Part shown: piece after piece, positions 37,549-64,000 of the stretch | How the letters are laid out: every line of letters starts with the position of its first letter | How positions within the stretch are numbered: position 1 is the first letter of the stretch | Source: Eledone cirrhosa | Lineage: Eukaryota | Length of the DNA: 64,000 nt | Assembly: GCA_964016885.1 (NCBI GenBank) | Contig: OZ024741.1 | Span: 314,960,001-315,024,000, forward strand | Direction of reading: 5' to 3' | Notes under the pieces: generated by a model | What the model saw: the letters and a program-made list of their open reading frames with translations, nothing else | What the model was told of the DNA's origin: nothing | The model's database searches: none | Program-made: the position numbers and the translations under genes

Positions 37549-37676
37549 GATAGAGTGAGACACGCTTCACATCGGTTCTGCTATTCTATCGGAATTTACC
37601 CTTACTATAGTAAGTAGCAGTGAATTTTTTCAGTACAACACATTTGGAACACTTACCCCTGTTATTTAGGGAAACA

Positions 37677-37860: not shown

Positions 37861-37960
37861 GTTATTTAGGGAAACATTTTTACATTTACCCCCTTTTTAG
37901 GGGGTAAAATAAATAACTATTTTTCTGTAAAACTTCTTTCTTGGACGCATCGCGGGAAAG

Positions 37961-39796
37961 ATGGCAGACATGTCTGCCATTAGCTCTGCCACGCCCCCCA
38001 AGTCTGAAGAACAAAAAATGGATACAACAAAACTAGACAACGAAACAAACAAGGAAAATGAAAAAAACAAATGTTACGGAAAATGAGCAAACGGAAAACA
38101 AACAAACAGAAAATAAGAATACAAAAAACAACAAGGCAACTTTCGCCCAGACAACAAAAGAATCTATACTATATACACCTATTGACTTAATTGCCGCCAG
38201 AGAGAAACTGGCAGAAGCAAAAAAGCACATAGTCTTGGGGGAGAACGGAATGTTTTCCATTAATTCCCCCCCAGAATTCAAGAAAACGAGACTAGAAAAC
38301 ACTGTTCTGTTTAGAACAATTCTAAACCACACGAGAAAGCCAGCAAAGCCCGGCCAAATGGAGATAGAGTTGGTCCTAAAAGACTATATGAAGAATATTC
38401 TCTTCATACGAAAGGACCGACTCTATGGCAGCATTTCTGTTTTAACAAAAGACAAGGAAACAGCACAGAGGCTTTCCCTAAGCCCACTCTCATCAACAGC
38501 ATACAGTTTCTATCCCTCCTACATGGGTAGAAGAACTCAGAGAGTCAAAATACAGACAATGCTGCCCACAATGGACTTCTGGTGGGCTATTGCTGGCTTC
38601 ATAGACATGGGCGAGGACACAGTGCTGTCAATGGGGAAGGCATCTGGAGATGCGTTCCTGGGAATGGGCCTCGACCTACTAGTCCAAATGAGGCCCGAAA
38701 GAATAGCGCAAATCCCGGATCGCATCTGGCTGGATAACCTCACCCCAATATATATAATTGTAGAGGGGAGAAGACCAGCATGCTATTCATGCACGGAAAG
38801 GGGACACGTTAAGGCTAACTGCCCGAATCGTATCCCCCAAAAAAGAATATTGCCCACACCCACCACAAACAATACACCAACACCACCCACCTCCAAAAAT
38901 ACACTAATACCACACATAGCAAACAAAATACAGACACCACCAACCACTAGCACAACACAAACATCACCATCACCAGCACCAAACACAAGCACGACACAAA
39001 AATCACCACCACCATCACCAACCACAACACAAACATCACCACCACCATCACCAACCACAAGCACGACACAAACATCACCACCACCACCACAAAACACATT
39101 CCAAACTAATAATAATAAAAACAGCAACAAATCTACCCCTCCCGCAAAAAAAACAACCAGACACCACGTCCCTCCCACCTAGCGCTGAAGAGTTTCCCCC
39201 AACTTCTGAAGAAGAAGGAGGAGAAGCCTTCAGACAAGTTAAAAGAAAAAAACGAAAGAACACACCCAGCACACCACAACAACAAATAACCCACACACAA
39301 ACACCAACTCCAATCAAAAACACCCCACCCTCCACAAACAAAAATAAATCTGCGCCTCCCCCCTTCGAAACATTGACAGCATCACAAAAAAAGACTTTGC
39401 AATACACATATATAAATAAAGAAAACAAAAAGCTGTTTAAATTAATAAACAATAGCCTTTGGTGCAGACCGAAGGGCCAAACTTTATCTCAACAGAGAAC
39501 TTCACCCATTTAAAAATGATAAAGGTCCCTCTGGACCTTTATCGTTCCTTAAAAGAACAATTTAAACAGGACGTGAGCCCCCCCCCTGTTTAAAACCGTT
39601 AAATCGCGTCCTCTTGAAAGATTTCCCCGTAACCTCCCCTCTCCCTGACACAACTCCAAATACCTCAACCCCACCACACTCGGATACCCCCACACCACCA
39701 CAAAACATCCCTCCACCCAACACACCCGACCCCATGGAAATTACACAATCCGGAGAGGTAGGTGCTTTTCTTTCTTCACTTTCAACACCAAAATAG
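37961..39796 (+). pseudogene. Tx1 ORF1 (gag-like, CCHC knuckle, Pro/Thr-rich tail), frameshifted
   Basis: ATG at 37961 (MADMSAISS..); main frame 38058-39182 with IIVEGRRPACYSCTERGHVKANCP. Confidence 0.85.
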
Positions 39797-39801
39797 ATCA
39801 A

Positions 39802-42800
39802 TTGAGAGTTGGCTGTTTGAATGCGCGTGGCCTGGGCTCAGCTTGGAAGCAAGCAAAGCTTCTAAGTGACCTCAGGTCACGAAGTATAGATGTGATGGTT
39901 GTTTGCGAGAGTCAGATCAGCAGCGTGCGACAGCTGGCTCCCGCCTTCGATGACTTTGAGATGCACGCATCTCTCTGTCAACCCGGAGGCGGGGGTGGGG
40001 TTGCTGTACTGCTGGATAAACGTCTGGCTCTCGACGTACAGATTGTTCACTCGGACCCGGGGGGTCGATTACTGGTGCTGGACGTCGGAGGCGGTGAAGG
40101 CGGGGCTTTCAGACTGGTCGGTCTTTATGCCCCCTTCGGGGCTGAAAGAGCCGACTTCTTCCAGCGTCTGGAGACTTTTCTAGGAACGTCGCGTTCCCTG
40201 CTTTTAGTGGGGGACTGGAATGGAATCCTAGATGCGCGTTGGGACTATGCAGGGGCATGTCCCGATAGAGGGGGGTGTAGCAGCCTCAAGGTGTTACTCC
40301 ATCGATTCGACCTGGTCGATAGATTTCGACTAGATTTTCCAACTGTGCCAACCTGGACCTGGACAAACCGCAGTGGTCAATCTAGATCGTACCTAGATAG
40401 GTTTCTGGTTAGGTGTAAGGATAGGGACGTATTTAGTTGTTCAGAATTGCTCATGGTTGGCTATTCAGATAACAAATTAGTGACCTGCGTGGTCAACCTT
40501 GATAGAAAGCATAGACAGGGTCCCGGTTACTGGAAGATGAACTTGTCCTTGCCGGCAAAGGAAGCTTACAGGAACCGGATTAGTAGCTTAGTTAAGATGC
40601 GGTTGACGGGAGCGATCGTCAACAGCAGGTGGTGGGTATCTCTAAAGAGAGAGATTAAAGTAAGTTCGATAGGTTACAGTAAGGAACTAGCGGCGAATAG
40701 AAATAGGAGGGAAAGGGAGTTAACAGATAAACTAGAAGAGGCGATTAGGAGCGGAGACGTGGCCAGAGTGTTAGCGTCGAGAACGGCGTTGAGCCAGTTC
40801 TTTGACGCGAAGCACGAAGGCTGCGTTGTCCGAAGTAAAATACGTGCTTTAGGAAACGAGGGGACCAAAACTGTTAGCTGGGCCCGCGTGACAGAAGCCA
40901 AGAGTGGGATTAAATCCACCATTCGGTCTTTACGAGACCAGGATGGACGGGTGATCCTTGAACCTGAGCGGATGTGCGAGGCCTTTCAAAGGCACTTTGC
41001 TCGACTGTTCGGAGGGGGCGGGGGGCCGGACGGGGATGTGGACTTCGGTCCATACCTCGACGGTCTACCGCGTCTTTCGAGCGGCGAAGCGGAGTGCTGC
41101 GAAAGGCCAATCACAGCCACTGAAATCGGTGAAGCGCTCAGCCAATGCAGCAGACGCAAATCTCCGGGTCTCGTTGGTCTGTCTACCATACGAACTTTAT
41201 TTAGCTATGCCGGTCTTGTTCTCCGAACTCCTCGAGGCTGTCTATTGCAACAGGCAACAGAACGGGAGAATTCCCTGTTCTGTGACCAAGGGCGTAGTCA
41301 CGCTAGTGAGGAAGGACGAGAGCAAGGGGGACGACTTAAGTAACTTTAGGCCCATAACTCTGCTAAATGCAGAGTTACAGATTTTGGCCAAGGTGTTGGC
41401 GAAGAGGTTGGCGCATGTGGTGGGTGATTTGGTGGGAGCCGCGCAGACATGCGCTATCCCGTCCAGATCCATTCACGACAACCTCCACCTCATGCGATAC
41501 ATCGTAGAGAGGGTTGGGACCGAACCCGGCTTTGGTGGGGCCCTGATCATCTTAGATCAATCTAAGGCGTTCGATAGGGTCGACCATGGTTACCTGGATG
41601 CGGTGCTAGCGGCGGCGAGCTTCGGATCCGTTTTCAGGGGCTGGATTTCTGCCATGCACAGTGGCAACGTCTGCTCTAGGGTTAAAGTAAACGGCTACCT
41701 CTCGGAGCCGTTTCAAATCACCCGGTCCATCAGGCAGGGGTGCCCCCTCTCCTCCCTTCTGTACGTATTGGCTCTCGAGCCACTGCTGCGGAAGTTGGAG
41801 TTGCTGCGGGGCATACCCCTGGAACCGGGATTGCACAAAGCGGTCTCGGCCTATGCCGACGACGTAACAGTAATGGTGGCGGACGCCTCGGAAATCGGGG
41901 CGATGGCCACCCTACTGGAGGAATACGAAAGGCTGACGGGGGCTAGGCTGAACCGGGACAAGTCAGTCGGTTTGCAACTCGGAACGTGGAGGGGCAAACC
42001 GATGCCGTTAGACGGTGTCGTCGGGCGGTGGACGGAGGGCCCGGTGTAGCTGCTCGGGGTCTGGTTCGGACCGGACCTCCAGGTGGAGAAGAATTGGGGC
42101 GAGGTGACGAGCAGGGTGTTTGCACTGACCCAGAAGTGGGCCAAGTGCAAACTATCACTGAAAGGTCGGGCGGAGGTGACGAACGCTTACATAGCGTCCG
42201 TCATCTACTACCTCCTGACCGTCGTGCCTTGCCCCAAGGAAACGCTCACCATCATGGAGCGCATGCTCTTCCAGTTCCTCTGGAAGAAGCGGCCTCCCAT
42301 GGTGAGGAGATCCATCTGCTGCCAGCACCCTTCGAAAGGAGGGCTGGGTATGCCGTGGCTGTTGATGCGTAGGCACGCATTGAGGCTACGGCATCTACAG
42401 GTATTCCTCACCGGTCAGCCGGTGTGGGCCCCGTTTGTGAGGCGAGCCTTCCCATAGCTCGTCTCGCTCACCGAGCTGCAATCCTGGGTGAAGCAAAGAC
42501 CGAGAAAACTGGGCAACTGGCACACTGAGTGTGCCCAGGCGCTCACGGCTCTCTGGCAAGCGGACCCGACTATCAGTGGAGAATCCACCTCGACATTCTA
42601 TAGAGGGCTGGTGGCTAGCAGGAGCGACGACACCCTTGGAGAGTCGCTAGGCATGGAGGAGGACGAACTGGCCAGCCTGTTCGGTAGAACTTTCGGCCCG
42701 GGACCCATGGACAACTTCCAGAGGTCCCTAGCCTGGCAGTGCTACCGGGGGGCTGTGCCCGTTCGAGAAAAGCTCTACAGATACGGGCGCCCGATCAGGG

Positions 42801-43234
42801 ATCCCGCGAAAAAGATCTGTCCCAGATGCGTGCGCGACGAGGAAACCGTTGCGCACGCACTAGTACACTGCCCGGACGTTGCCAATCTGTGGGGCTACGT
42901 CGAACGACTGCTGTCGCGTGTGGCGCCGATTCGATTGGCCGCCGAGTCTGTGGTGAACATCAAGCCCCCTCCTCCCTTCAGAAATGAAGCAGAGGCGGTC
43001 TTTCTGTGCGTAATAGCCATGATGAAAGAGGTTGTGTGGTGGACGCGCCTGAAAGGTCTGAGGTCGGGTGACTTTCTCTCCGGCCAACACCTGGTTTACT
43101 TCTTCCGATACCACTTCGGAAGAAGGATCAGGATGGAGAGAGAAGTGCTTGGCCCCAGACAGTTTTATGAAAGGTGGGTGAAAGAAGCGAGAATGGCTCG
43201 TGTAAATGGGCCTTCTCTCTACATTGTTCTGTAG
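39802..43234 (+). pseudogene. Tx1 ORF2 (APE + RT + zf-RVT), one frameshift and two in-frame stops
   Basis: GCLNARGL, LVGDWNG, SYLDRF, GYWKMN, FRPITLLN, LDQSKAFDRVDH, RQGCPLS, AYADDV, GGLGMP, CPRC..ETVAHALVHC; frameshift near 41180; TAG at 42047 and 42455. Confidence 0.93.
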
Positions 43235-43480
43235 GTGAAGAAGTGAAGAGGAAAGGGGGAGCGCCTCGTCTCTGGGCTTCCCCCGCGAAAAGGGTTGCAC
43301 ACTTTTCGGGGGTATGTGCAATCCCCAACACGCCCCCTCCCTTTTGAGGACTTTTTATTATTATATTATTCTTATTGTTATGCCTTTTTCTTTACTCGCA
43401 TTTATGTAAACTTCCCCCTGTGTATTTGTCCCTTTCTCTTGTGCCCTAGTGGCAAATAAAGAAATCTATCTATCTATCTA

Positions 43481-43600
43481 TATTTTATTTAATTTTAATA
43501 TCTTGTTATTGCCTCCTCCTTATTGAGGACGCCTTTTTATGTAAACTCCCCCCATTGTACTTGTCCCATTTTTGATGCTCTGGTGGCAAATAAAAAGAAA
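43481..43600 (+). mobile_element. Severely 5'-truncated Tx1-family 3' end #2
   Basis: TTTATGTAAACTCCCC..TTGTCCC..GTGGCAAATAAAAAGAAA, then (TCTA)n. Confidence 0.8.
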
Positions 43601-43654
43601 GTTATCTATATATCTATCTATCTACCTATCTACCTATCTATCTATATGTCTGTC

Positions 43655-47310: not shown

Positions 47311-48970
47311 TAAAACTGACTTACACCCACAAGCCAAGAAGCATAGCCTTCGCTGCTGGTCACACCCAGCACCAGCGACTTTCCTTCTGGGTCCAGGAAG
47401 ATGGTCCGTATCACGAGATCCCGACCTGTCTGAAATAACACAGTAACTTCGCCTCCTGTTCGCGGTCGGCTTGGAGATGCGTACACATCGTAACCACCGA
47501 AGATGAGTGCAAAGGCATGTGCCTCGGAATTCTGGTCTTGCTGATGGGCACCACATCTATTTTCATTGGCCTGAGGTCATTGAGCATGCTTCCAGGACGA
47601 ACCCAGGCCACGTGTATTTATGTCACTTATTCTGAGTAAGGTGATGTTGAAAAGGAGTGGCAAAAGATGGAAAAGTCCACTTGCCTCAGTTCTTGTGGGG
47701 GAAGGATGGTTTTTCCGCCCTTCTCACTGCGTGTGGCCCCCTCCAGAAGGATGTCTTTATATATTATCCTGGAATGTGTTTGTCGGAAATCTCCGATGAC
47801 TTTGGTGAATTTGATTTGTGGTGGTGGTGTTGGTCTTACTACTGTTGTTGCTACAGTTGCTGCTGTCGTTGCTACTAGAGTTGCTGTTGCCATTTCTGCT
47901 GCTGATTTTGTTTATCGAGCCAGTAGGATGGCCGGAGAGTTGGCCTTAATTTTTTAGTCATCCCCTGAGGGCAGAATGCCTTTATGTGGGTTCCCTCGCC
48001 ACAAACGACACACCTAGGCCTTCTACTTTCAACAATTATAGTGAGGTGTTCGCCTTCATCGAGGTCTATGACCTCTGGAATTTCTTGGATGTTCTTCTGG
48101 TCCGTTTGGATCAGCAGCTCCATTCCATATCCGGACCATTTCTCCTGTTTTTATCTGATCACTTCAATCACTTTGTGTCGGCCTCGATGTCGGCGAGGAC
48201 GGCAGCCATCAGCCAGGGAATTTCAATGGCCGACAAAACCTGGGTCACCTTTACTCTTACGAGCCTTTGCCCATAGTAGATTGGGCTGATTGTGAACTCG
48301 TCACTTTTTGGTGGGACCATGGAGTGCTCTCTGACTTCCTGTGGGGTTCCAAAGAACACGCTCACGCTCCCATATCTTTGTCCATGTCTGAAGTGGGTTT
48401 TTTGAGCCCACACATGTCCTAAAGCATTTTGTATCTGGGATTCGGATGCCCGTTCCACTCGGCGTGTTTTATATTAATCGTGTGGAATGATACAGAACAT
48501 AGGCGGCGATGCTGCATGGTATTTGATGGGGGAGTGAGGCTGACACTGTTGCCACTTTTTTCACCATTCGCTTGGACTTATTCATTTCTTCCTGGCTTAC
48601 CTCAATCGTCTTGTTCGCCACTTTAGTAAAAGTCACGTCTGTTTTCGCGCTGGTGTTGGTGTTGTTGTTGTTATTCTTATTGTTGCTTTTGCTGTTATTG
48701 TTATTTTTGTTATTATTTTTGTTTTAGTTGTTGTTGTGGTGGTGGTGGTCGTGGTGTCTGTTCGACGTGGAAGAATCAATTGTGGGAGAATGCATTTTCG
48801 TACACGAGATAATCTTTTTATTTCAGTTGTTGCTGCGGTTGTTGTAGTGGTGGTATCACTGGTGTTGGATGTACTCTTCGACATTGTGGTGGTGGAGATG
48901 ACGGCTTTAACACCTGTAGACATTGGCAAAGGCGGGAACTCTACGTCTGCACGTGGCAAAATTTGCGTAA
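47311..48970 (-). mobile_element. Decayed Tx1/L1-clade element (ORF1 plus start of APE)
   Basis: RYGSVSVFF, IIVESRRPRCVVCGEGTHIKAFCP (homologous to ORF1 at 38058); RGLGSSWK..LNDLRPMKIDVV matches the ORF2 N-terminus. Confidence 0.82.
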
Positions 48971-49049
48971 ATGTATTTTATATATTTTCCCAATGCAATC
49001 GTTGTTTACAATTTATTTCGACCCTAATGCATTATATTGACAGCTTCTG

Positions 49050-49317: not shown

Positions 49318-50450
49318 CGGCATGCCGAAGCTTCTCTATATCCTTCGCAGCGCTACGTGCTATACCCACGCATCTCTCCTTGCTGACCTCGAAAGTTGTA
49401 TCCGAGCGGCAGCCGAGGAGATATGCAACGTCAGGTTTGACGACATTGGATGGCAACAGGCCACTTTATCTGTCAGATATGGTGATTTTGGCCTCCGGTC
49501 CTCGATCTCCCTGGTTTTGCCGGCGTTTCTTTCATCGGTAAGCTCATACCGCTTCCTCATCAGCAGGGTTCTACAAAGCACAATGGAACACTCTGTGATC
49601 AGCGAACATGAGGTCGCCTGTGAGACGTGGGACCGACTGGGACTTAGCCCAGTAGACTCCCACCTCTTTCACTCCTGCTGACGTCAAGTCCTCCCAAAGT
49701 ATATGGGATGCCATCCAGTGCAGACTGACCTCACCAGGCTCACGCGCCAGCTCGACCATCACCGCCTTGCCTGTTTTCGTGCGGCCTCCAGACCCCACAG
49801 TGGTGCCTGGCTCCATACCTTGCCCTCCTTCTCCACTGGCACGCAGCTGGATAACAATAGCCAGCGCATCGACGTTTCCTTGAGGGTTGGGTCCTGATCT
49901 ACGAGCCACACCAATGTTGCTGTGGAACCACCATGGACTCTTTCGGCCTCCACTCGCTTTCCAGTCGCCACAGTGCCGACCGCCTTCCACGCCATGCTGC
50001 CCTCAACGAAGACATAAAGCATGGCTTGGACGCTTCAGGCTTTTCTTCCCAGCTCGAGCCGGTGGGGCTGGACTGATGGGATGGCAAATGGCCAGACGGC
50101 ATGACTGTCTTCCCGTCCCTCGGTGGCAAACCCTCGTCTGGGATGTCACTTGCATCGACACTTTCTCCAGCCGCAACCTGGTGCAGTCTGCGACTAACCC
50201 AGATTCTGCTCGCGTCGGGCTGAGCAGTACAAACTCTCCAAACACCGGTCGCTCTCCGACAGGTTTGCGGTCGTGCCCTTGGCACTGGAGTCTTCTGGTG
50301 TCCTCGGCTTTATGTTTAACTCCCTACTCACCACCATATGCGCGAGTTGGAATGGCTCTTCCAGTGCATCTCCCTGACCACCCTCCGGGGAAACGCCTCC
50401 TCCACTCTGTCCGCCGGGGCTGTGGGGAGGCGATCAATATGTTTATTTAA
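49317..50450 (+). mobile_element. 5'-truncated CRE-clade (RLE) non-LTR retrotransposon, decayed
   Basis: PKLLYILRS, WQQATLSVRYGDFGLR, SGAWLHTLP, DGKWPDGMTVFP..LVWDVTCIDT, RGNA; flanked by (AT)n. Confidence 0.8.
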
Positions 50451-50522
50451 CCTTTTTATATGTCGAGACTGAATTATGTTTTATTCTCCCCTTTATATAT
50501 ATATGTGTGTGTGTGCGTGTAA

Positions 50523-50660
50523 AGGCGCATGGCTTAGTGGTTAGAGCATTGGGGTGGCAATCAAAAGGTTTTGAGTTCAATTCTCGGACCCGGTGTTGTT
50601 TCCTTGAGCAAGACACTTTATTTCACGTTACTCCAGTTTACTCAGCTGTAGAAATGAGAT
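50523..50660 (+). mobile_element. tRNA-derived SINE
   Basis: A-box TGGCTTAGTGG; B-box GAGTTCAATTC; core TCCTTGAGCAAGACACTTTATTTCAC. Confidence 0.85.
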
Positions 50661-51149
50661 GATAGGACTGGGGTCCCTATCATTAAATTACTCAAGACAC
50701 CTCCAACGAGATATACCTTGGAAGAGGCCAGCTAAACCTGCATAGGTGTGAGCTGTCACACACACATATATATATATGTGTGTATGAATATGCATCAGTC
50801 GCAAATGAAACAACAAACTAAAAACTACTAATAACTCCATTTATACCTCACACTCAATAACAATACTATAAAATACAAAACAAAATATAACGAAAGAGAA
50901 GCAACTCCAATAAGCTAGAATACCACACTCCCCGCTACCACCACCAACACCACTCTTACCACAGGAACAGTTGAGAAAATTCTCATACACATCTTACAGC
51001 TTCAACCATCACATCACCTCAATAAACAATTGCAATGGCTATAACTATATTGTTGTTACAATGGTAATAATGATTTCTCCGATAGCTACCCAATGCACTA
51101 CCCGGCATTGCCGGGCAACATTCCAAGGACTATCAACTCCATCGGTCAC

Positions 51150-52680
51150 GCAAGCATGAATTGCGGGAAAACAAATAAAAATTAATACAGAACACCAAAT
51201 CGCTTGGCCTATGGTTAATCAGAAAGCGCGTCCCTCAGGAAGGTGCCAACTTCAGATGGAAAAGTCTTCCTCTGGCACAAACTCTTCTCCTAGAGTTCAC
51301 TTAAACGGAGATTGCCCCAACTCGAGCTCCCCCACCAAACCCACCACTAAAAAAAATGTAAAAGAATGAAATGGACCCGAGAAGAGTTTAAAGAAGTAAT
51401 ATACGCATATTACTATGCATTCGGTAAGCCATCACAAGGCAGATACACCGCAAACTCTCACAAAATTTGGAAAACACGAAATCAAGCTAGCAGACGTTAT
51501 CTGGATGAAAATAAGTTAGCAAATGTTAGGACGGATCTTTTCAGAAATAATATACTCACAGATACTGAAATAACTGCTATCAAGCGAGCTGTGGAGAATG
51601 ACATATATATAATTCATGAAAAAACTGAAGAATCTCCTGGAGATAGTAACTAGTCACAAGTCTTTATCGAAAGACAACCATCTGACCAAATCTCAAATAG
51701 GTTTGTAGGAGATGAAAAGTCCTATTGAACTTACTGAAAATAGCTAGGAATGGGGCAAAGAAACAGTACTTGAAGACCAAATTTTTTTTCTGAAGAACAC
51801 AGAGAGTCTATGAATTAATTGAAACAGAAAATACTGAATGAGCTTGCAGTTGTAAGACTAGTATAAATGATAGAGAATCACTTCAAAAACTACCAAATAC
51901 AATCCAAAACAAATAATGATTAGTAACTCTGTAACAAAAGAAATCATAGATGAATTAGGATCTGATCTTACTAGGTTAAATGAAATCATTTATGCATCTG
52001 CTAGAGTAATTGAAACAAGTTGTTTACCACCAAAAACCAAAGAAGTCTAACTTGAGAAGTAAACCAATTTGGAGATGTAGAATTGAAAAGGAGATTAATT
52101 TAATGAGAGGGTCAAATATCTTTACTGAATGAGCTAATCACTAGAAATGATGTAAGATCCAGGAAGGGAAGAAAGCTAAAGAGAAAATATGTACTTTCTT
52201 TCAGAAAAGTATTAATATCAACAAAGGACACTCTGAAGCAAAAAATAAAAACCCAACGAATTCGTAGATTCAAGAAGCGAAAGAACTTCTTCAGGCAAAG
52301 TAAATTGTTTACATCCAATGCGAAGTCATTTCATAGAGAAATAGGGAAGGAAAAAATAATTATTGAATACTTCCATTCCATAGAAGTTGAAAACTTTTGG
52401 AGAAAGATTTGGACTGATGAGAAGTCATATAATGCTAATGTAGATTGGAATAGTCGCTTGGAAAAATCCTACACAAATTTACAAGAACAAGCATGGGATG
52501 GCATCTCTAGAGCACACTTAAGGATGACACTCAATAAAGCTGATTTGGGGAAATCTCCTGGTAGAGATAGGGTGCCATATTTCTGGCTTTCCTAACTCCC
52601 GTGTATTCAAAATATATTAGTTAATCTGTTCAACGGAATAATGAAAGATAAAAAAACAACACTTGACTGGATAGCAAGTG

Positions 52681-52682
<2 letters not shown>
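51150..52682 (+). mobile_element. R4/Dong-like element D1, decayed and 3'-truncated
   Basis: MKWTREEFKEVIYAYY..NKLANVR; FHREIGK..FWRKIW..KSPGRDRVPYFW, homologous to D2; breaks off at W-I-A-S-G into (TAA)n. Confidence 0.82.

Positions 52683-52743
<61 letters not shown>
52682..52743. repeat. (TAA)n tract
   Basis: Seen directly. Confidence 0.98.
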
Positions 52744-55700
52744 GGGAAGGGAAGAAGACGCACGAGGTGGTAGGAGGTCATGAAATCGCTCCCGTAAGTT
52801 TTTGATTTTTAACATATTTAAATCAATTGTGGAATAACAATTCTTAGTACAAATGTTGCATAAACCACCGAATGAAGTCCCATAAAATTTCGAATCCATA
52901 TTATATTGTTATATCGCTCAAATATTCAATTTTCTATTATATATTTTGTATTCAAAAAAAAGAAAATGGTTATAAATGGAAGAAAACACCCTCTGTTTAC
53001 ACTATATAGAACAGCCAAATAACAGCAATTTCACCAACACCAGAAACTTGATACACCACCTATCCCATCACACTAAATATAACAGCCAGATAACGGCAAT
53101 TTCACCACCACCACCATCAATCCCAGCATCATAATAATAATTACTATTATTATTGTCTCAAATTGTAACAAAATGTTTAATTCCAATTTTACGAGAATAT
53201 GTCAACACAATATATATTAAACATACGAACACAAACTCATAGATACTACATATCACAAAACCCAGTAACCACAACGCCACCGCCGCCACCACCCCATCCA
53301 TCATTGCTACCACTATCCCATCGCCGCCGCCACCACTCCTTCATTGCTACTACCACTATTCCCCTGTTAACTTGAGAGAGAAAGGGGAAGGTGGCGGTAT
53401 CACTAGACAAGGGAGAGGCTAGCAAAAGATATAAATAGATTGACTTAGTGACCTGGCCACCGGCCAAACGTCAACATCAACAACTATGGGACTGCTGGCT
53501 CACCCCTTCCTCACCAACAATATAAAAAGCCCCGGCACCACCACCGACATAGCCAACTAAAATAACAGGCAACTACAGGAAAAAGTATATTATATTATTG
53601 TAATGCACTGGGTGATTGCTGGCCTTGTGCCTGGAGTGGAGACAATTATTAATAATTTCATTCTTAAGCCACGCAATGCTCACATTAAGGAACCACTCAT
53701 GATAATAACAATTTTAAAAAAACAACAAAAAGAAAACCCCGTGACCAAGAAATACCGGGATGGCGGCCGGCGGGGAATAGCCGTGTCTCTAGGGGAGAAC
53801 GACCCCTCTAGTCTTGGTTGACACTCGTTCTAGAAGTGGTAACACGAAATGATTACCCCTTGGCGGATAAGGATAAAACGCGACAAAATAAAGTAAATGT
53901 CTAATGATAAAATCTCATACCGGATCGGCCGTCCCCCGTGTAAAAAAGGGCCGCGTCCCTCAAAGAGGAACCAGACTGGAGTCGAAAAATCAGCTAATGG
54001 TTCAAACCTTCCCATCACTTCGGAGCTGGAGACCTCCCATAACCGGAATACTCCTACTGTTGGCCCTCCATGCTCACCACCAAGAAATCCAAAGAAAAGG
54101 AGAGAAAATGATCAAGGGAAGATAATAAAGAAGTCCTTGAGGCTTTCTACACTGCCATGTACTACCCATCAAATACATCGAATACAGAACAGACATATAT
54201 CAACTGGAAAAAGAAACAACCCGAAAACAGAGGCTATATTGACAGTAACAAACTAGCCAATATACGAAGAAATATTGTAAGAAAAAAGTTACTAACTGAT
54301 ATAGAAATTGATCAGATCAAGCTATTAGCACAAAGTCAGCGAAGGGAAAATGAAACATGTGTCAGTGAAAACGAGGTAAACTGTAACACTTCGAATCCCA
54401 GGGTTGGGGCAGAATCACTGGCAACAGAACAAATTAAAGAAAGGATCGAAAAAGTGGAGGGAGTGCATGCTCAGGGTGAAACTCCAAATGAAAATAATGA
54501 GATCGTAAATGATAAAGAAATGAATGAGAATGAACTTGCCAACTTGAAGGATGAAATTATGATCGAATGGATGAAAATGAAAGAATCTGACATGGGGCAA
54601 CGAGACACCCTCCCTAAGATCCAGAACTCCAAACAGAACCAAAAGATAATGCACAAGACTAACATAATTCTCAAAAACATTATCATCACAAACAAACTAA
54701 ACATTACTGATTTAAATCATCTCTATTATGCATCGGCGAAAGTCACCACTCACTTATGTGGAGTGAAGATGAAAAAATAAAGGAATTCCCACAAGAAATT
54801 TACTTGCCAAGAGAACATCAATCGCCAAATAAACCTTCTCCGATCTGACATAGAAATTTTAACAAACTATAAAGAAGGTGAACATGTTAAACAAACTAAA
54901 CTTAGAAAATTGAAAAAAAAGTACAGTATAAAATCAACATGTGACATAGACATGCTGATAGAAATAATCAAGCAAAAAGTGTCGGCCAAAGCTGCTCGTA
55001 TAAGGCGCTTTGAAAAACGATCTAGATTCTATAAGGACAATAATATGTTCAAAAACAACCAAAGAAACTTCTACAGAAAAATTGGTAAGTCAACAATAAC
55101 TGCTAAATCAATACCACCCAAGGAGGAAGTGCAAGAATTCTGGGAAAAGATCTGGGCCGAAGAAAAAGTTCATAACATACATGCCCCATGGATAGACAGA
55201 CAAATGAAAGATATGGCTCACCTTGAGGAACAAACATGGGAAAATATAACAGTTGAACAGTTGCGCTTGGGTCTAAGAAAAACCAGCAAATGAAAATCCC
55301 CAGGAAAAGACAAAGTACAAAACTTTTGGATAAATGCCTTCACAGAGTCTCATGAGCTGTTAGCCCAACTTTACAATGAAATAGTTAAGGAGCCAGAAAA
55401 GATACCATCATGGCTAGTTAACGGCATTACATTCCTGCTTCCGAAGAATGATGAGACAAACAATCCCAAATATTACAGACCGATAACTTGCTTGACCACA
55501 ATGTATAAAATGTTAACATCAGTCCTAACTGAATACACATATGACCACCTGATAACAAATGGCATATTTCCCATTGAGCAGAAAGGGTGTAAACGAGGCT
55601 CATATGGCTGTAAGGATCAGCTTCTGGTTAACAAAATGATACTGGAAGATTGTCATAATAGACACAAAAATCTATCGATTGCTTGGTTAGATTATAAAAC

Positions 55701-57690
55701 AACATTCGATAGTTTGCCACACAGTTGGATTGAAAAATGTTTAGAGATTTTCAAAATATCCCCCGTTATCAGGAGGTTTTTGTCATTCAGTATGAAGACA
55801 TGGAAAACGACACTCCTTTTGAATAGTGAAACAAAATCACTGGAAGCTGGAGAAGTTAATATTAATTGTGGAATTTTTAAGGGTGACTCTTTATCACCGC
55901 TTTTATTCTGCATCGCACTTATACCATTAAGTAAAATGCTCAATGAAACAAAACATGGATATAAAGTCTATGACAAAACCATTAATCACTTGTTCTACAT
56001 GGATGACCTGAAATTATTTGCAAAAAATGATGAACAATTGCAAGGGCTATTATCCACTGTGGAGCAGTTCAGTGATGACATTAAAATGGAGTTTCGACTA
56101 GATAAATGCGCCAAAGCAACGTTCACCAGAGGAAAGCTGCTGAAAAGTTCAGACATTAATCTTGATCAGGGGAACGTGATAAGAAAACTTGATCAAGAAA
56201 AAACTTACAAATATCTAGGTGTTTGTGAAGGAGACGGAATCAAGCACTCGACAATGAGGGAAAGGATAAGGAAGGAATGTTACCGCAGAGTAAGAGCAAT
56301 CTTAAGAACGGAATTGAATGCAAGGAATAGGATCGATGCCATAAACACGCTTGCCATACCAGTAGTAACCTACAGTTACAATGTCATCAACTGGTCAAGC
56401 ACAGAGATCCGTAGGCTCAATACAAAAATTCGAAAATTCTTAACCATCCACAGAATGGATCACCCTAAGGCAGATATAGATAGAATATATCTCCCTAGGA
56501 AAGAAGGAGGACGTGGGTTAATCCAGTTAGACATTGCGTTGAAAACTGCAACAATTGGATTATCTACATATCTAAGGGAATCACATGATTGGATGATCAA
56601 ACTCGTTTTGAAACACGAAAGCATCAAAAGATCACATTCCATTACAAAAGATGCACAAAGATACAGTAATGGACTACAAATTTCAGAAGTCCCATTTACT
56701 GCTGAAATGGAAAACACAGAAAAAGCAAAGCAGGTAAAAGTAACTGCAAAGAAAGAACTGCTACAGAAACTGGCTAAGAAATGGCAAGAAAAGCCTCTGT
56801 ATGGAAAATACCCAGAGCGAGCTAACAATCCTGATGTTGACAAAACTTTAACCCATCAGTGGTTGGCATCCTCAGGACTGAAATCGGAGACTGAAGGACT
56901 GATTATATTAGCACAAGATCAGTGTCTGCCAACAAAAAATTACCAAGCCAACATAATAAAAAATGGGTGCAGCCCATTATGCCGTGTATGCAAAAAACAA
57001 CCAGAGACAATTGACCATATAATTTCAATGTGCGGTCCTATAGCTCCAACCGAATACCTAAACAGGCATGACAGAGCTGCACAATACATACATTGGATAA
57101 TGTGTAAGCATTTTGACCTGCCCCATCAAAAGAATTGGTGGGAGCATCAACCACCTCCCATACTTGAAAAAGATCACATCTCAATCTTGTGGAACTTTAG
57201 CATCCAAACAGACCGAAAAAATAGATGCAAACAGACCTGATATAATATTGAAGGACTTTAAAAAGAGGGTATGCCTGCTAATTGATATGTCTGTTCCAAT
57301 AGACAAGAATGTATCTATAAAAACATTTGAAAAATTGAGCAAGTATAAGGACCTGGGGATAGAAATTGGAAAAATGTGGAAATTGAGAACTAAAACAATA
57401 CCAGTGGTTGTAGGCGCTCTGGGAATGATACCTAAGGGGTCTAATGATTAATTATCGCAAATCCCAGGAAACCCGCGTATAGCAGAAATACAAAAGATAG
57501 TACTAATGGGAACTGCCCATATACTAAGGAAGATTCTGTCAATATAAGTACATCACAAGTCTAAACACTAAAGATGCATGTGTGAGTATGTATGTTCTTC
57601 CTTGAACATGGCGGACCTTGTTGTCTCTTGAGGTCACTGGTTATGACTTGGTGATAACTCGTATGAACATAAAGCAAGGTAAATGCAACT

Positions 57691-57691
<1 letters not shown>
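52744..57691 (+). mobile_element. R4/Dong-like element D2 (leader + RT-RLE ORF + 3' UTR)
   Basis: Bounded by (TAA)n on both sides; ORF motifs listed in the next feature. Confidence 0.9.
53897..57547 (+). pseudogene. D2 RT + CCHC + restriction-like endonuclease ORF (few stops/frameshifts)
   Basis: YRPITCL, EQKGC, KDQLL, GIFKGDSLSPLLF, HLFYMDDLKLF, YKYLGV, GGRGL, CRVC..ETIDHIISMC, RHD, RPDIILKD..LIDMSVP..KY; stops at 54778 and 55291; frameshifts near 54110 and 57220. Confidence 0.92.

Positions 57692-57758
<67 letters not shown>
57692..57758. repeat. (TAA)n tract
   Basis: Seen directly. Confidence 0.98.
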
Positions 57759-57759
<1 letters not shown>

Positions 57760-60700
57760 GGAAGAAGACGCACGAGGTGACGGAGGTCATGAAATCGCTC
57801 CCGTAAGTTTTGAATTTTTAACATATTTAAATCATTTGTGAAATAACAACTCTTAGTACAAATGCTACGTAAAGCACCCGGCTTGAGCCCCAAAAAAATT
57901 CGGACCCAAAATATATTGTTATAAGGCTCAAATATTCAAATATTCAACTTTGTATTGTACACTGTATATCCAAAAAAAAAATGGCTATAAATGGAAGAAG
58001 AAGAACCCCCCCCCCCCTCCTCTCCTCTGGCTACACTATATAGGACAGCTAAACTCACCAACACCAGAAACTAGATACACCACCCACCCCATCATCTGTG
58101 TACACTGAACACAACAGCATTTTCACCTTCACCGCCACCGCTCACTACGGCCATCATTACCACCACTATCCCATCACCGCTGCCACCACCCCTTGACTCC
58201 TTCACTGCTGCTGCCACCGCTACAGCACCATCACTACAGTAATACGGCTCAAATATTCAAATATTCAACTTTGTATTGTACACTGTATATCCAAAAAAAA
58301 AAAAAATAAATAAATAAATAAATAAAATGGCTATAAATGGAAGAAGAAGAACCCCCCCCCTCCTCTCCTCTGGCTACACTATATAGGACAGCGAAACTCA
58401 CCAACACCAGAAACTAGATACACCACCCACCCCATCATCTGTGTACACTAAACACAACAGCATTTTCACCTTCACCGCCACCGCTCACTACGGCCATCAT
58501 TACCACCACTATCCCATCACCGCCGCCACCACCCCCTGACTCCTTCACTGCTGCTGCCACCGCTACAGCACCATCACTACAGTAATACGGTCGCATCACC
58601 GCCACCACTGTCTCGGTATCGACATCACCACCACCACTGTCTCAGTATCGCCAACGCCGCCACCACCCCCTGACTCCTTCACTGCTGCTGCCACCGCTAC
58701 AGCACCATCACTACAGTAATACGGTCGCATCACCGCCACCACTGCCTCGGTATCGACATCACCACCACCACTGTCTCAGTATCGCCAACGCCGCCAGTCT
58801 CTGCTGGCTACCACTTCCACATTATAGAATTCCTACTACTAACAAAGAGGAAGGCATCAAAATATATAGATAGACTCAAAAGAAAAAAGAAAAAACAAAC
58901 AACAAAAGCAGCACAGCAACAACAGTAAAAAACGAGAAAAACAGAGAAAAACAAAAACAAAAAAAGAAACCCAAAAAACGTAAAGAAAATAAGAATGAAG
59001 AGAGAAGCAGGCGGACGGACAGAGAAGAGGGGGGAAAAAGTAAAACTTAAAAAACAAAAACTAAGTCAGACATTCGAATACTACATTACAATGAAACTTA
59101 TGCTTATTCATTTTTGGGGCCCTTTCTGCCCGTGTGTTTGCTTGTTTATGTGTGTCCGTATACAGCGTGGTGATAATGCCACACAAGGGCCAAGTGGGAT
59201 GGCGGATCCACAGATGGCTATGTAAACATACATTCGCCAATCCTCGATAAGAGTGTTTAAATATCGAACATAAACAGTTCGAATAACGGTAAAATGGAGA
59301 CTAGAACGTCATGTGACAGACTCTCACCCAACAGGTGCCCCCTGGCTCAGCAGCAGGAACCTGACTGTCAACCAAATACTGCTGATGTTGGAGGAAGAAG
59401 AAGAAGGAAAGGGGCCAGAACCAACTGGACGAAAGAATTGAATAGAACTGTTATGCAATGCTACCTGAAAAGTAACCCCAAGGAGAGGGGCTACAGGAGA
59501 CGGATGCATAACATCTGGAACGAGATTGGTTTATTTAAATTAGATGAACAAAAATTGGCCGGGCAGGCTCGGGTAATAAGAACTAATGGGTGGATAAGCG
59601 AGCTGGAACTGGAGGAACTGAGCAGAGAGAATGGCTTGGAGATGGCGGGTGTAGTATGCCAGACAAGCGAGCCGGCGGGAAATGAAGGTGAGGAGGTCCT
59701 GAGAACGGAGGAACCACCCGAAGCAGACAATGATCTGAATACTGAGATAAATAATACCTGGAACAGAGAAACGGCCACTGAGGAGATGAATGCTGACGGG
59801 CTAGGACAAGATTCGGTTGACATCCTAAATTTAGTGGTAGATGAGTTGAACAATGATAGTGGGAGACCTATGAACCTAAGATTTGTAGACAGGAAAAAGT
59901 TAAAAGAAACAACAGCTAAGGTAAACAAAGTCATCCCATACCTTGAGGCGAGGAGTCTTCACCAGTGCAACAATATCCTCAAAGCAACAGCAAATACGGT
60001 GAGGAAACTACTTGGTATAAAAGCGAGAGGAAACAACAGACAAGAAAGAGCAGAGCCGTGGTGGAAGAAGCGACTGAGTGGGCAAATCGGGGAAATGAGA
60101 AATGACATAGGAAAGCTTGAGTCACTACTGAATGGGACACTAAAAAACATAGGCACTAAAAATAGACTGGAAATAAAATACAAAACTAGGAGTAAAAAGC
60201 TAAATATTATCATAGAGGAATTGAAGCAACGCATTGTAGCAAAGAGTGCCAAAATCAGGCGATACGAGAACAGAGTCAGTCAGTATAAACAGAACCGCAT
60301 GTTCGACAACAACCAGAAGATGCTGTTTGGACAGCTTGAGGGGAAAGAAAGAGGCAACGACTTGATCCCTGGGGCGGAACAAGCTAAAACATTCTGGAGA
60401 GGAATATGGGAGCAGGATGTTAGACACAATGCCCAGGCAGGGTGGATTGAGACAGTACAGAGGGAGATCGGTGAGCAGGCACAGCAACAGACTGATTTGA
60501 GTATCACAGTTGAAACTCTTAAGGGGCAAGCCAAAAAACTAACCAACTGGAAATCACCAGGCCCAGATGGTGTGCAGGGGTATTGGATTAAACATTTAAC
60601 ATCCCTCCACCCGAAGCTGACGGCCATGTTCAATGACTGCTTGGTGTCGGGTGAGGTGCCAGAGTGGTTGACAAAAGGTACCACAGTTCTGATAATGAAA

Positions 60701-62760
60701 GACCGAATCAAGGGTAATGATGTTACCAACTATAGACCTATCACATGTCTGCCCGTAATGTGGAAACTGTTGACGAGCATTGTGTCTGAGGAAATCTACC
60801 ATCACCTCCACACAAACAACTTGTTGCCGGACGAACAGAAAGGATGCCGAAAGAAGTCACGTGGTACAAAGGACCAGTTGCTTATTGATAAGATGGTAAT
60901 GGGGAATTGCAGGAGGAGACACACTGATCTTGCCATGGGATGGATAGACTACAGAAAGGCATTTGACATGGTGCCTCATTCCTGGATCACCAAAAGCCTG
61001 GAGATCTTCAGGGTGGCAGATAACATCAGACAGTTGCTGGGCAGGAGTATGGGGTCCTGGGAGACAGAGTTGACATCAACTGGAGTATCCTTGGGAAGCG
61101 TGAAGATCAAGAGAGGTATCTTCCAGGGAGATAGCCTGTCCCCTCTGTTGTTTGTCCTTGCCCTGATGCCCTTGACCATTATGCTGCGAAAAGTGAGAGC
61201 AGGATACAAGTTGGGAAGGGGAGAGCTTACCATCAATCACCTCCTCTTCATGGACGATCTTAAGCTCTTCGGGAAAAGTGAGAAGGAGTTGGATGTGCTT
61301 GTTGACACTGTCCGTATTTTCAGCAGTGATATATGTATGCAGTTTGGTATTGGTAAATGTGGAGTCATTGTGATGAGGAGGGGTAGGTTGAGCAGAAGTA
61401 ACGGGATCCAGATACCAACAGGTGAGATGATAAAGGAAATTGACTCTGAGGAAGGATACAAGTATTTGGGCGTTCTGGAGGCTGATGGCATAAAGAACAA
61501 AAAAATGAAGGAATTGTTAAGAACTGAATACATTCGGAGAGCAAGGAGCGTATTGAAGTCACATCTGAACAGCAGAAATGCCATAAGCGCAGTAAATTCC
61601 CGAGCTGTGTCTATTATTAGGTACAGTGCGGGAATTCTGAGATGGAATGTTGCTGAACAAAAAGAAATGGATAGGAAGACTAGGAAGCTATTGACTATCT
61701 ACAACATGTTCCACAAGAGGAGTGATGTCGATAGACTCTACCTAAGGAGATCTGAGGGTGGAAGAGGTCTTATCAGCATAGAGGACTGTGTTCAGATGGA
61801 GAAAAACAACCTATACAAATACGTGACCTATAGTAAGGAGCCAATGCTCAGAGCTGTACTGAAGGAGGGGACAGTAGGCCAGGGGATACCCAAGGAGGAA
61901 ATAACATCAAGGAGGAAGAGCAGCCTTAAGGGAAAATCCCTTCATAGTACCTTCTTTGAGAAAACTGAATTTAGAGATCCACAGACATGGAACTGGTTGA
62001 GAAGAGGAGACCTCAAAAAGGCTACAGAAGGAATGCTAATGGCTGCGCAGGAGCAGGCCCTCAAAACGAAGTGGTTGAAGCACCATATCTACAAGGAGGA
62101 GGCTAGCCCACTGTGCAGGATCTGTGGAGAGAGAGAGGAGACTGTGGCTCACATTGTGTCCGAGTGTAAACACCTAGCCCAGACCCACTATAAGGGCTGG
62201 AGACACGATGTGATGGGCAGGGTGATCCACTGGCACCTGTGCAAAGTAAACAATCTACCACATTCTGAGAAATGGTATGAGCATAGGCCAGAGGCGGTGA
62301 TGGAGAACAGTCAGGTGAAGGTGCTGTGGGATTTTAGGATACAGACGGACAAAAAACTGGAACACAATAGACCTGACCTGGTGGTTGTGGACAAAGAAAA
62401 AAGATCGTGCCTGATTGTGGATGTGGCCTGCCCGTTCGACACGAGAGTGCAAGAGAAGGAGAGGGAGAAAATTAACCGATACCAGGACCTAAAGTGGGAG
62501 GTGAAAAGGATTTGGAACTGCCATGAAGTCAAAGTGATCCCGATTGTCATAGGCGCACTGGGGACTATCTCCAAAGGTTTCCAGGGATGGTTAAAGAAAA
62601 TCGGCCCCTTCACGCTTTTTGGAACGCTTCAAAAGGCATGCTTGCTTGGAACGGCAAGAACCCTCCGATACGTCCTGAATATCTGAGGCTGCAGGTAGTG
62701 GCTTGATATTCAATCCAACGGACTTTCCAGTTAACCAACATCAATGACTGAGATTCAAGG
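57759..62760 (+). mobile_element. R4/Dong-like element D3, apparently intact
   Basis: Leader with internal duplications (about 57925-58245/58246-58590 and 58535-58660/58661-58795), uninterrupted ORF, 75-bp 3' UTR, (TAA)n at both ends. Confidence 0.93.
59294..62686 (+). CDS. R4/Dong-clade retrotransposon protein (RT, zinc knuckle, PD-(D/E)xK RLE), 1130 aa
   Basis: WKSPGPDG, NYRPITCL, EQKGCRK, DYRKAFDMVPH, GIFQGDSLSP, LFMDDLK, YKYLGV, CRICGEREETVAHIVSEC, RHD, RPDLVVVD..IVDVACP..EKINRY, PIVIGALG; no stops. Confidence 0.96.
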   Translation: METRTSCDRLSPNRCPLAQQQEPDCQPNTADVGGRRRRKGARTNWTKELNRTVMQCYLKSNPKERGYRRRMHNIWNEIGLFKLDEQKLAGQARVIRTNGWISELELEELSRENGLEMAGVVCQTSEPAGNEGEEVLRTEEPPEADNDLNTEINNTWNRETATEEMNADGLGQDSVDILNLVVDELNNDSGRPMNLRFVDRKKLKETTAKVNKVIPYLEARSLHQCNNILKATANTVRKLLGIKARGNNRQERAEPWWKKRLSGQIGEMRNDIGKLESLLNGTLKNIGTKNRLEIKYKTRSKKLNIIIEELKQRIVAKSAKIRRYENRVSQYKQNRMFDNNQKMLFGQLEGKERGNDLIPGAEQAKTFWRGIWEQDVRHNAQAGWIETVQREIGEQAQQQTDLSITVETLKGQAKKLTNWKSPGPDGVQGYWIKHLTSLHPKLTAMFNDCLVSGEVPEWLTKGTTVLIMKDRIKGNDVTNYRPITCLPVMWKLLTSIVSEEIYHHLHTNNLLPDEQKGCRKKSRGTKDQLLIDKMVMGNCRRRHTDLAMGWIDYRKAFDMVPHSWITKSLEIFRVADNIRQLLGRSMGSWETELTSTGVSLGSVKIKRGIFQGDSLSPLLFVLALMPLTIMLRKVRAGYKLGRGELTINHLLFMDDLKLFGKSEKELDVLVDTVRIFSSDICMQFGIGKCGVIVMRRGRLSRSNGIQIPTGEMIKEIDSEEGYKYLGVLEADGIKNKKMKELLRTEYIRRARSVLKSHLNSRNAISAVNSRAVSIIRYSAGILRWNVAEQKEMDRKTRKLLTIYNMFHKRSDVDRLYLRRSEGGRGLISIEDCVQMEKNNLYKYVTYSKEPMLRAVLKEGTVGQGIPKEEITSRRKSSLKGKSLHSTFFEKTEFRDPQTWNWLRRGDLKKATEGMLMAAQEQALKTKWLKHHIYKEEASPLCRICGEREETVAHIVSECKHLAQTHYKGWRHDVMGRVIHWHLCKVNNLPHSEKWYEHRPEAVMENSQVKVLWDFRIQTDKKLEHNRPDLVVVDKEKRSCLIVDVACPFDTRVQEKEREKINRYQDLKWEVKRIWNCHEVKVIPIVIGALGTISKGFQGWLKKIGPFTLFGTLQKACLLGTARTLRYVLNI

Positions 62761-62801
62761 AATAACAATAACAATAATAATAATAATAATAATAATAATA
62801 A
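62761..62801. repeat. (TAA/CAA)n tract
   Basis: Seen directly. Confidence 0.97.
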
Positions 62802-64000
62802 GGGAAGAAGACGCACGAAGTGGTAGAACGTCACGAAATTGCTCCCGTAAGTTTTTTGATTTTTAACATATTTAAATCAATTGTGAAAGAACAATTCTTA
62901 GCACAAATGTTGCATAAAGGCACCGAATGAGGTCCCATAAAGTTTCGGATCCATATTATATTGTTGTATCGCTCAAATATTCAATTTTGTATTATATATT
63001 TTGTATTCAAAAAAAGAAAATGGTTATAAATGGAACAAAACACCCTCTGTCTACACTATATAGAACAGCGGCAATTTCAATTTCACCAACACCAGAAACT
63101 TGATACACTACCTATCCCATCACACTAAATATAACGGCAACTTCACCGGCATCATAATAATAATTACTATTATTATTGTCTCAAATTTTAAAAAATGTTT
63201 AATTCAAATTTTACGGGAATATGTCAACACAAAATATAATGAAAATATATATTAAACATACGAACACAAACTCATAGATACTATATCAGTAACCACAACA
63301 CCACCGCTGCCACCACCCCACCACATCCATCATCGCCGCCACCACTCATTCAATGCTACTGACACTATTCCCCTGTTAACTTGAGAGAGAAAAGGGAAGG
63401 TGGTGGTAGCACTAGACAAGAGAGAGGCTAGCAAAAGATATAAATAGATTGACTTGGTGACCTTGCCACGGACAAACGTCTACATCAACAATTATGGGAC
63501 TGCTGGCTCACCCCTTCCTCACCAACAATATAAAAAGCCCCGGCACCACCACCGACATAGCCAGCAGCAATAACAGCCAACTACAACAAAAAGTATATTA
63601 TATTATTGTAATGCACTGGGTGATTGCTGGCCTTGTCCCTGGAGTGGAGACAATTATTAATAATTTCATTCTTAAGCCACGCAATGCTCACATTAAGGAA
63701 CCACTCATGATAATAACAATTTAAAAAAACAACAAAAAGAAAACCCCGTGACCAAGAAATACCGGGATGGCGGCCGGCGGGGAATAGCCGTGTCTCTAGG
63801 GGAGAACGACCCCTCTAGTCTTGGTTGACACTCGTTCTAGAAGTGGTAACACGAAAAGATTACCTCTTGGCGGATAAGGATAAAACGCGACAAAATAAAG
63901 TAGATGTCTAATGATGAAATCTCATACCGGATCGGCCGTCACCCGGGTAAAAAAGGGCCGCGTCCCTCAGAGAGGAACCAGACTGGGGTCGAAAAATCAG
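62802..64000 (+). mobile_element. R4/Dong-like element D4 (D2 family), 5' part; runs off the window
   Basis: Colinear with 52744-53993; ORF start ATGTCTAATGAT at about 63904. Confidence 0.9.

Follow-up and report, generated by a model that had tools for sequence, protein, structure and literature searches.

An intron-bearing leader shared by two (TAA)n-targeting LINE families of Eledone cirrhosa, and its apparent exchange between them

How do two retrotransposons with very different proteins come to begin with nearly the same non-coding sequence? The question is raised by a window of 64,000 nt (the whole stretch of DNA analysed) from contig OZ024741.1 of the Eledone cirrhosa assembly GCA_964016885.1, in which the elements D2, D3 and D4 follow one another (Table 1). 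The original prediction held that a near-identical start follows each (TAA)n, and this is borne out, with leaders starting at 52749, 57759 and 62802 and a (TAA)n directly 5′ of each. Partial start duplicates like the one before D2, as well as (AAG)n runs, are present at many copies.

Table 1. Features of the D2, D3 and D4 elements in the window.
Feature	Position	Strand	Remark
(TAA)n tract	52682..52743	+	D1 tail and D2 target
Partial duplicate of element start, 5 nt	52744..52748	+	5′-junction by-product
D2 leader exon 1, 45 nt	52749..52793	+	Exon 1 end as in spliced copies L231, L235
Shared-leader GT-AG intron, 169 nt	52794..52962	+	Exactly absent in L231, L235; X1 joint 52793->52963
Remainder of D2-to-D3 module	52963..53409	+	Junction of the 194-copy chimeric D3 subfamily at 53409
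tRNA-type SINE 3′ tail	53598..53645	+	Later insertion, fixed in younger D2; X1 joint 53598->53645
D2 ORF	53897..57547	+	RT, CCHC, RLE motifs; window copy with stops and a frameshift
(TAA)n tract	57692..57758	+	D2 tail and D3 target
D3 leader exon 1	57759..57802	+	Donor GT at 57803
D3 leader body	57803..59293	+	Front from D2, rear from old D3, internal duplications
Candidate far acceptor (pyrimidine tract and CAG), D3 leader	ends 59165	+	Putative
D3 ORF, intact	59294..62686	+	RT, CCHC, RLE motifs
(TAA)n tract	62761..62801	+	D3 tail and D4 target
D4, young D2-family copy	62802..64000	+	Extends past window end
D4 exon 1	62802..62846	+	
D4 intron	62847..63016	+	
D4 ORF start	63904	+	

Two families and the leader they share

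D2/D4 and D3 represent two LINE families with RT and RLE, both autonomous and (TAA)n-targeting. Compared over 1168 aa, an intact D2 ORF (1216 aa, in L131) and D3 share 36% identity, and the codon-aligned DNA is 49% identical overall and 32% at third positions. The bodies give no blastn match (word 7, E<1e-3), as expected from the claim that the ORFs lack evident nucleotide identity; the proposed alternative, that they are close relatives at the nucleotide level, does not hold. The closest outside relatives of D3, among the matches listed, are 60-64% identical to it, and the tree does not place D2 and D3 as sisters.

Both families insert into (TAA)n and end in (TAA)n, as is characteristic of the TAA-specific Dong elements, and AAT/AAG repeats lie upstream of 66 of the 68 scorable starts (80 starts, 12 unscored). 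Because new copies land in the TAA tails that older ones left, the two families build head-to-tail stacks. Their single long ORF carries an RT followed by motifs that, read off the translation, we take to be CCHC and PD..D..K, the arrangement of R4/Dong-clade RLE LINEs. The R4/Dong label is a putative one, given by resemblance. Pfam RVT_1 scores above its cut-off and zf-RVT below, the best solved-structure matches are R2 proteins, and informative names are found for none of the 120 homologs listed nor for the Protein atlas clusters. The single ORF with RT, CCHC and RLE, the TAA-repeat flanks and the precise 5′ end are all like those of Dong (Bombyx mori) and the R4 clade. In coleoid cephalopods, Dong-R4 is among the expanded LINEs, according to PMC8967140 and PMC9115989.

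Against this divergence of the bodies (49% in coding DNA, 36% in protein), the D2/D4 and D3 leaders are 83-86% identical. Over the first ~330 nt, gaps excluded, identity is 266/308 for D2-D3, 256/309 for D4-D3 and 296/319 for D2-D4. The homology of about 330 bp originally described is thus real and its extent was underestimated: in older subfamilies it reaches ~700 nt, with patches to about 53480, and the window D3 has a shortened and duplicated version of it. The whole leader is 1.1-1.5 kb long in both families.

Does the leader belong to these elements, or is it an independent non-autonomous TAA-associated element, or a host repeat, that happens to stand before their ORFs? In a position-ordered sample of 80 leader starts, 77 lead into a D2 (21) or D3 (56) body, so that the leader is neither mostly alone nor a stand-alone SINE- or SIDE-like unit. 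All 30 of the best D4-type matches continue into D2 sequence, and leader and body change together along the subfamilies. The 3 starts without an ORF might have spoken for independence; two, however, are internally deleted elements with a family 3′ tail and the third is interrupted after ~100 nt. Within this sample we regard the idea as refuted.

The original prediction also took a SINE tail in the D2/D4 leader as a sign of how the leader was assembled. The tail is there, and matches a tRNA-type SINE at 37680-37865, but it is missing from older D2 copies (L124, L373, L376, L379); it is therefore a later insertion, and uninformative on assembly.

As for where the leader came from, its ultimate source could not be traced: among the copies sampled, even the oldest of both families already have it. 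No third family carries it among 80 + 41 starts (within 1.5 kb, L358 and L362 are ambiguous), the D1 family is without a homolog, and no leaderless old D2 turned up when an old D2 piece served as query, the matches being mostly young copies. One candidate for the ancestral D2 start, GGGAGAGG just after 53409, was rejected, as it has a single genomic match and old D3 is homologous past 53409. We found no description of this leader in the literature searched, a scope without Repbase, most subscription journals and supplements.

Leader exchange

A tree of 65 leaders mixes D2 and D3 bodies. It implies 7 body changes, 4 of them forced by well-supported branches, and 0% of bootstrap leader trees have 1 body change. 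In the chimeric subfamilies, the first part of a leader from one family is joined, out of register, to an element of the other that is truncated at its 5′ end. In one direction, L116, L117 and L164 have an old D2 leader to nt ~699 followed by an old D3 leader from nt ~171; this chimera, in which a truncated old D3 carries about 700 nt of D2 leader, is represented by 194 exact copies of its junction. In the other, L114 and L140 match a mid D3 leader (96-97%) before passing, over a 4-nt overlap, into D2 at nt ~373-391; this junction, which puts a D3 leader in front of a truncated D2, has 57 matches at about 33 loci. Near 53321 there is another D3-to-D2 junction (L107, L111 and the second element of L172). 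Comparison of the copies thus supports a leader swapped between D2 and D3 in both directions and more than once, in line with the prediction of a promoter or 5′-processing module swapped between lineages.

Could the leaders instead have been homogenised by gene conversion or homologous recombination among genomic DNA copies? With >1,800 copies in the genome there would be many partners. But the junctions link non-homologous sites (D2 nt 699 to D3 nt 171, and D3 nt ~600 to D2 nt ~390), and each was inherited by many copies from one master, so we disfavour this route as quite improbable.

A different question is whether the exchange took place through DNA or RNA. At L262/L263, a full-length D3 has the same 279 leader bases on either side; its junction shows a GGGAA overlap, and the duplicated leader piece derives from the adjacent DNA, private variants included. 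The alternative is that the reverse transcriptase left its own RNA for an RNA of the other family, with no capture of neighbouring DNA. Such a jump predicts the same chimeric junctions as capture does. It would suit out-of-register junctions with short overlaps, and also L167 and L184, short internally deleted copies in which the leader is joined straight onto the family 3′ tail; the observed exchanges link subfamilies of similar age, and in vivo jumps of R2 are reported in PMC3414825. It accounts poorly for a piece copied from adjoining DNA at L262/L263, and head-to-tail stacking sets a leader beside many target sites. We therefore consider the RNA jump possible and rather unlikely, and exchange of the intron-bearing leader between D2 and D3 by capture from a neighbour probably the best explanation as a whole.

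Neighbour capture would likely occur during formation of the 5′ junction in head-to-tail arrays. Reverse transcriptase would prime in a TAA tract directly upstream of another element, the cDNA end would anneal by microhomology within the leader of that downstream element, and the new copy, landing behind a working promoter, could found a subfamily. It counts against this reading that the capture step seems visible at a single locus, where the captured piece precedes a full-length, not a truncated, D3.

A spliceable leader, probably in place of a ribozyme

The original prediction missed that the shared leader consists of a 45-nt exon and a GT-AG intron, and that there are genomic copies from which the 169-nt intron has been precisely removed. 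Two such copies, L231 and L235, belong to two subfamilies and show the identical exact removal. In run X1, the contig splice joint 52793->52963 has a depth of 107 versus 12-33 at the other listed joints; in runs X5 and X6 the leader is barely covered. Spliced copies are rare, about 99.8% of copies retaining the intron. In 48 copies picked without regard to the donor, the donor GT is intact in all 47 that align there (1 is gapped), and positions 41-50 are the best-conserved 10-nt window of the leader, a slight excess (0.96 vs 0.93-0.94 elsewhere).

These copies resemble SpIREs, spliced L1 retrocopies that, by PMC5860796, are rare, have lost an intron within the 5′UTR and do not expand, with a conserved donor near the 5′ end kept within a RUNX3 site. 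Here too an otherwise normal insertion has precisely lost a GT-AG intron from its 5′UTR, the donor near the 5′ end is conserved, and the spliced copies do not expand. The SpIREs of that source are from APE-type L1, another clade. Spliced copies would be dead ends, and the donor may be retained because it supports transcription.

Splicing may, on the other hand, be incidental, since the searches turned up no spliced copy with a D3 body, and the near acceptor AG has been lost from the young D3 subfamily, the window D3 included. A putative far acceptor of D2 lies at 53668. Splicing of D3 copies to the candidate far acceptor was considered and rejected: 8 of 8 matches are point changes, and none of the listed joints is of this kind. 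The near-misses are not exact splices: L229/L230 join 5 nt short of the AG, and the joint of L382 falls about 10 nt past a far AG.

Is the precise start cut rather than transcribed? The 5′ end might arise when a read-through transcript, which tandem arrays would permit, cleaves itself or is cut in some other way, the leader then being a ribozyme-like processing module and no promoter. HDV-like ribozymes cut at the 5′ junctions of silkmoth Dong and Ascaris R4 (PMC3774820). An Rfam scan of 50000-64000 gives chance-level matches and no ribozyme. An HDV descriptor that fires on a built control finds, in 9 leaders, none starting in the first 22 nt and no strong match anywhere, so that computationally these leaders lack the 5′ ribozyme of the B. 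mori type. Leader folds are no better than shuffles (z-scores 0.2-0.7), and across 23 diverged copies 0 of 13 pairs have a compensatory change, which lends no support to the proposed GGGA/TCCC, GAC/GTC and CAC/GTG stems. Together with an intron that can be spliced, 45 nt into the RNA, these results make self-cleavage improbable. Dong and R4 differ in that no ribozyme was found here, and in place of it stands a leader of 1.1-1.5 kb, with a spliceosomal intron, common to two families.

Because the starts are precise and the leader is spliced, we infer a promoter with its start at +1. D2 exon 1 is likely the transcription start and core promoter, and the leader the likely promoter of both families, in place of the self-cutting RNA of their relatives. 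A DPE-like GGTCA moves from +27 to +29 by subfamily and is altered in D4, and is not claimed as a promoter motif.

A possible promoter pool in the TAA tracts

How does this compare with known exchanges? In mouse L1, PMC3600994 describes promoter-bearing 5′ ends that move among co-active families, with 11 replacements estimated and template switching or annealing to a genomic copy as proposed routes. The partners there belong to one L1 lineage; here they have 36% protein identity, the exchange is two-way and repeated, and a common target stacks them side by side. The R2/R1 hybrid SIDEs, by PMC3414825, combine the 5′ module of one lineage with the 3′ part of another sharing its locus, and are likewise 5′/3′ hybrids of two lineages; short internally deleted copies exist here too. 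SIDEs are non-autonomous and have a ribozyme, whereas the chimeras here keep a whole ORF and founded large subfamilies.

More speculatively, and as a whole doubtful, the common TAA tracts may hold a shared promoter pool, in which swaps of a neighbour's leader launched successive waves, the leader replaced an ancestral ribozyme, and the intron acts as a switch, unspliced RNA becoming DNA and RNA spliced to the far acceptor, near the ORF, being translated.

Replacement of the 5′UTR is known to have driven the success of mammalian LINEs, in cases confined to one lineage. Here there are two lineages and exchange in both directions; the junctions can be counted, the subfamilies ranked by age, and the event is apparently caught at one locus, so that capture from a DNA neighbour and an RNA jump can be tested against each other from one genome. 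Repeat libraries that keep a single sequence for each family will join D2 and D3 elements wrongly or misdate them. Finally, these results suggest that a Pol II leader that is spliced, and not a ribozyme, serves some Dong-like RLE elements.

One leader, two kinds of element

The four non-LTR elements D1-D4 are arranged head to tail from 50.8 kb to the window end (C2:314960001-315024000 within a 3.0-Gb assembly), with (TAA)n between them. SINE and other repeat features hint at an octopus-like cephalopod as the host. D2 and D4 belong to one family and D3 to another, and the non-coding leader that the original prediction saw at the front of all three is indeed common to them, with a between-family identity of 83-86% over about 310 aligned bases. 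The bodies that follow are as unlike as had been proposed: D2 and D3 bodies have no blastn match, an intact D2 ORF (copy L131) has 36% protein identity to D3, and their codon-aligned DNA shows 49% identity overall and 32% at third positions. Outside relatives of D3 are at 60-64% identity, and D2 and D3 are non-sisters in a 42-row tree whose rows were recruited by D3, D2 being a long branch. So close a leader match cannot be explained by shared descent.

Positions of the leader and other features in the window (nt)
Feature	Position	Remark
Leader start, D2	52749	
Leader start, D3	57759	
Leader start, D4	62802	
GT-AG intron	52794-52962	
Far AG (candidate acceptor)	53668	
Last D2-leader position before old D3	53409	old D3 follows from nt ~171
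D2 after mid-D3 leader	from ~53139	4-nt overlap
Additional D3-to-D2 junction	near 53321	
Young D3 leader repeats	57918-58796	~330-nt internal duplication and 134-nt tandem repeat, copy-variable number
D1	50780-52682	RLE-type
Broken RT element	6975-10003	N-terminal endonuclease
Higher-order array	14400-36500	large; 12-bp GGAAAAGACAGC unit; long open frames, both strands
(TCTA)n-flanked element	37550-43650, 47900-49000	

The leader is part of the D2 and D3 elements. Exact matches to a 26-nt leader motif number 1,547, and those to its older version 310. When we asked what follows each leader start (the first 80 of 100 matches listed, all on contig C1), 56 led into a D3 body and 21 into a D2 body, which speaks against a stand-alone unit; of the three short ones, one is interrupted and the other two have the leader fused straight to the 3′ tail of one of the families. 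Conversely, among 30 copies selected by the D3 ORF start, 17 extend to the leader start motif, and those of the other 13 that are among the matches listed start within the same leader. AAT/AAG repeats precede 66 of 68 scorable leader starts, with varied flanks upstream. The two fused copies, L167 and L184, are short and internally deleted, with 345 and 92 nt of leader ahead of a D2 or D3 3′ tail.

Exchange of the leader between families

An older leader type is found in old copies of both families, those of D3 being at 82-93% identity to the window D3 and those of D2 at 88-95%. A tree of the first ~230 nt of the leader, with 65 rows (35 near-identical young D3 rows and rows without the end motif being omitted), has seven changes of body label, four of them forced; an earlier 46-row tree had five, three forced. 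Rooted by midpoint only, the 65-row tree has the D2 leader lineage enclosing mid and young D3 leaders, and D3 leaders enclosing some young D2 copies.

The direction of exchange is revealed more directly by the junctions. Three copies (L116, L117, L164) run from D2 leader into old D3, a junction with 194 exact copies; two others (L114, L140) run from mid-D3 leader into D2, with 57 matches, counted as 33 loci, versus 1 for the control. These junctions and the additional one near 53321 all join non-homologous positions. With chimeras in both directions, the proposed swapping of a module between lineages is borne out, and we regard repeated exchange of the leader as well shown and very nearly certain.

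How the exchange may work is suggested by one locus (L262/L263), where a full-length D3 has on both sides (AAT)n(AAG)n and the same D2 leader, 279 bases being identical, and where GGGAA of the target is replaced by the D3 start. The simplest reading of this locus would be priming inside the TAA tract, followed by annealing of the cDNA end some 300 nt downstream, in the leader of the neighbouring element; a 5′-truncated cDNA taking the same route would give exactly the observed chimeras. The junctions are explained equally well by a template jump between RNAs, of the kind reported for R2 (PMC3414825).

Splicing, probable promoter function and the search for a ribozyme

The leader contains a spliceable intron. 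Its first 45 nt (exon 1) end at the boundary CCC|GTAAGT, and a genomic search for exon 1 followed by any base but G found 21 places, 17 of them point changes and four joins. Exactly the GT-AG intron is missing from L231 and L235, which are of different subfamilies, while L229 and L230 are a single duplicated event that joins 5 nt earlier, where there is no known AG. For the older leader type, one of 22 (L382) joins exon 1, inexactly, about 10 nt beyond the far AG. In sequencing run X1, whose pattern looks DNA-like, one contig carries the GT..AG joint of L231 and L235 at a depth of 107, versus 12-33 for the other listed joints of that run. Some 0.2% of all copies are spliced. An intact donor GT is present in each of 47 aligned copies whose selection made no use of the donor, and the near acceptor AG is lost in young D3. 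D3 has a pyrimidine tract and CAG ~130 nt upstream of the ATG, kept even in copies at 85% identity; a search for copies spliced to it found none. Because the start is fixed, the flanks vary, splicing occurs and the chimeras succeed, the leader is likely to have promoter function.

Self-cleavage at the 5′ junction is reported for silkmoth Dong and Ascaris R4 (PMC3774820). The stems originally predicted in the leader fared poorly, with none of 13 predicted pairs covarying across 23 diverged copies and the first 55-150 nt folding no better than shuffles. An Rfam scan of the window DNA with the leaders gave no ribozyme, and an HDV descriptor had no match at the start of nine leaders (a built control fires). 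Judged from sequence, the leader is not a recognisable ribozyme; it is possible that it is one of unknown class.

Neighbours and known relatives

Both D2 and D3 encode RT, and their translations show CCHC and PD..D..K motifs; R2 proteins are the best solved-structure matches. Third-codon GC is 0.39 in the D2 ORF (L131) versus 0.54 in D3, within one genome; a different past host of one family is possible. D1 (L195-L214) is a third family with an unrelated 5′ region, its protein 36% identical to D2 and 28% to D3 over short stretches only. (TA)n/(TG)n often adjoins D1 copies, and the closest are grouped at C2 311-315 Mb. Another RLE-type family lies on the opposite strand at L246:1875-3888 (~47% amino acid identity to D3). 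The broken RT element, which we take to be RTE-like, is separate from D1-D4. Two ~6-kb two-ORF RT families (L250-L254 and L255-L261), presumably Tx1-like, occupy the same TAA tracts upstream of leader starts; they run on the opposite strand, facing the leader head to head, and have a relative in the (TCTA)n-flanked element of the window.

At 5′ junctions, partial start duplicates and (AAG)n runs are common, the latter lying between TAA tract and element start (e.g., L003, L017, L029, L184). The (AAG)n apparently comes from repeated copying of the GAAGAAG start, and leader-bearing elements may seed new microsatellite in this way.

The D2 and D3 elements might be likened in their working to TAA-targeting Dong, with a 5′ end that would act like an L1 5′UTR, but computational searches did not find the 5′ ribozyme of Dong in their leader. 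The L1 5′UTR, like this leader, is reported to be swapped between families (PMC3600994) and occasionally spliced (PMC5860796). A literature search outside Repbase and most subscription journals found no earlier account of the leader. Not described before in the literature searched, the leader is a real feature and a variant of a known arrangement.
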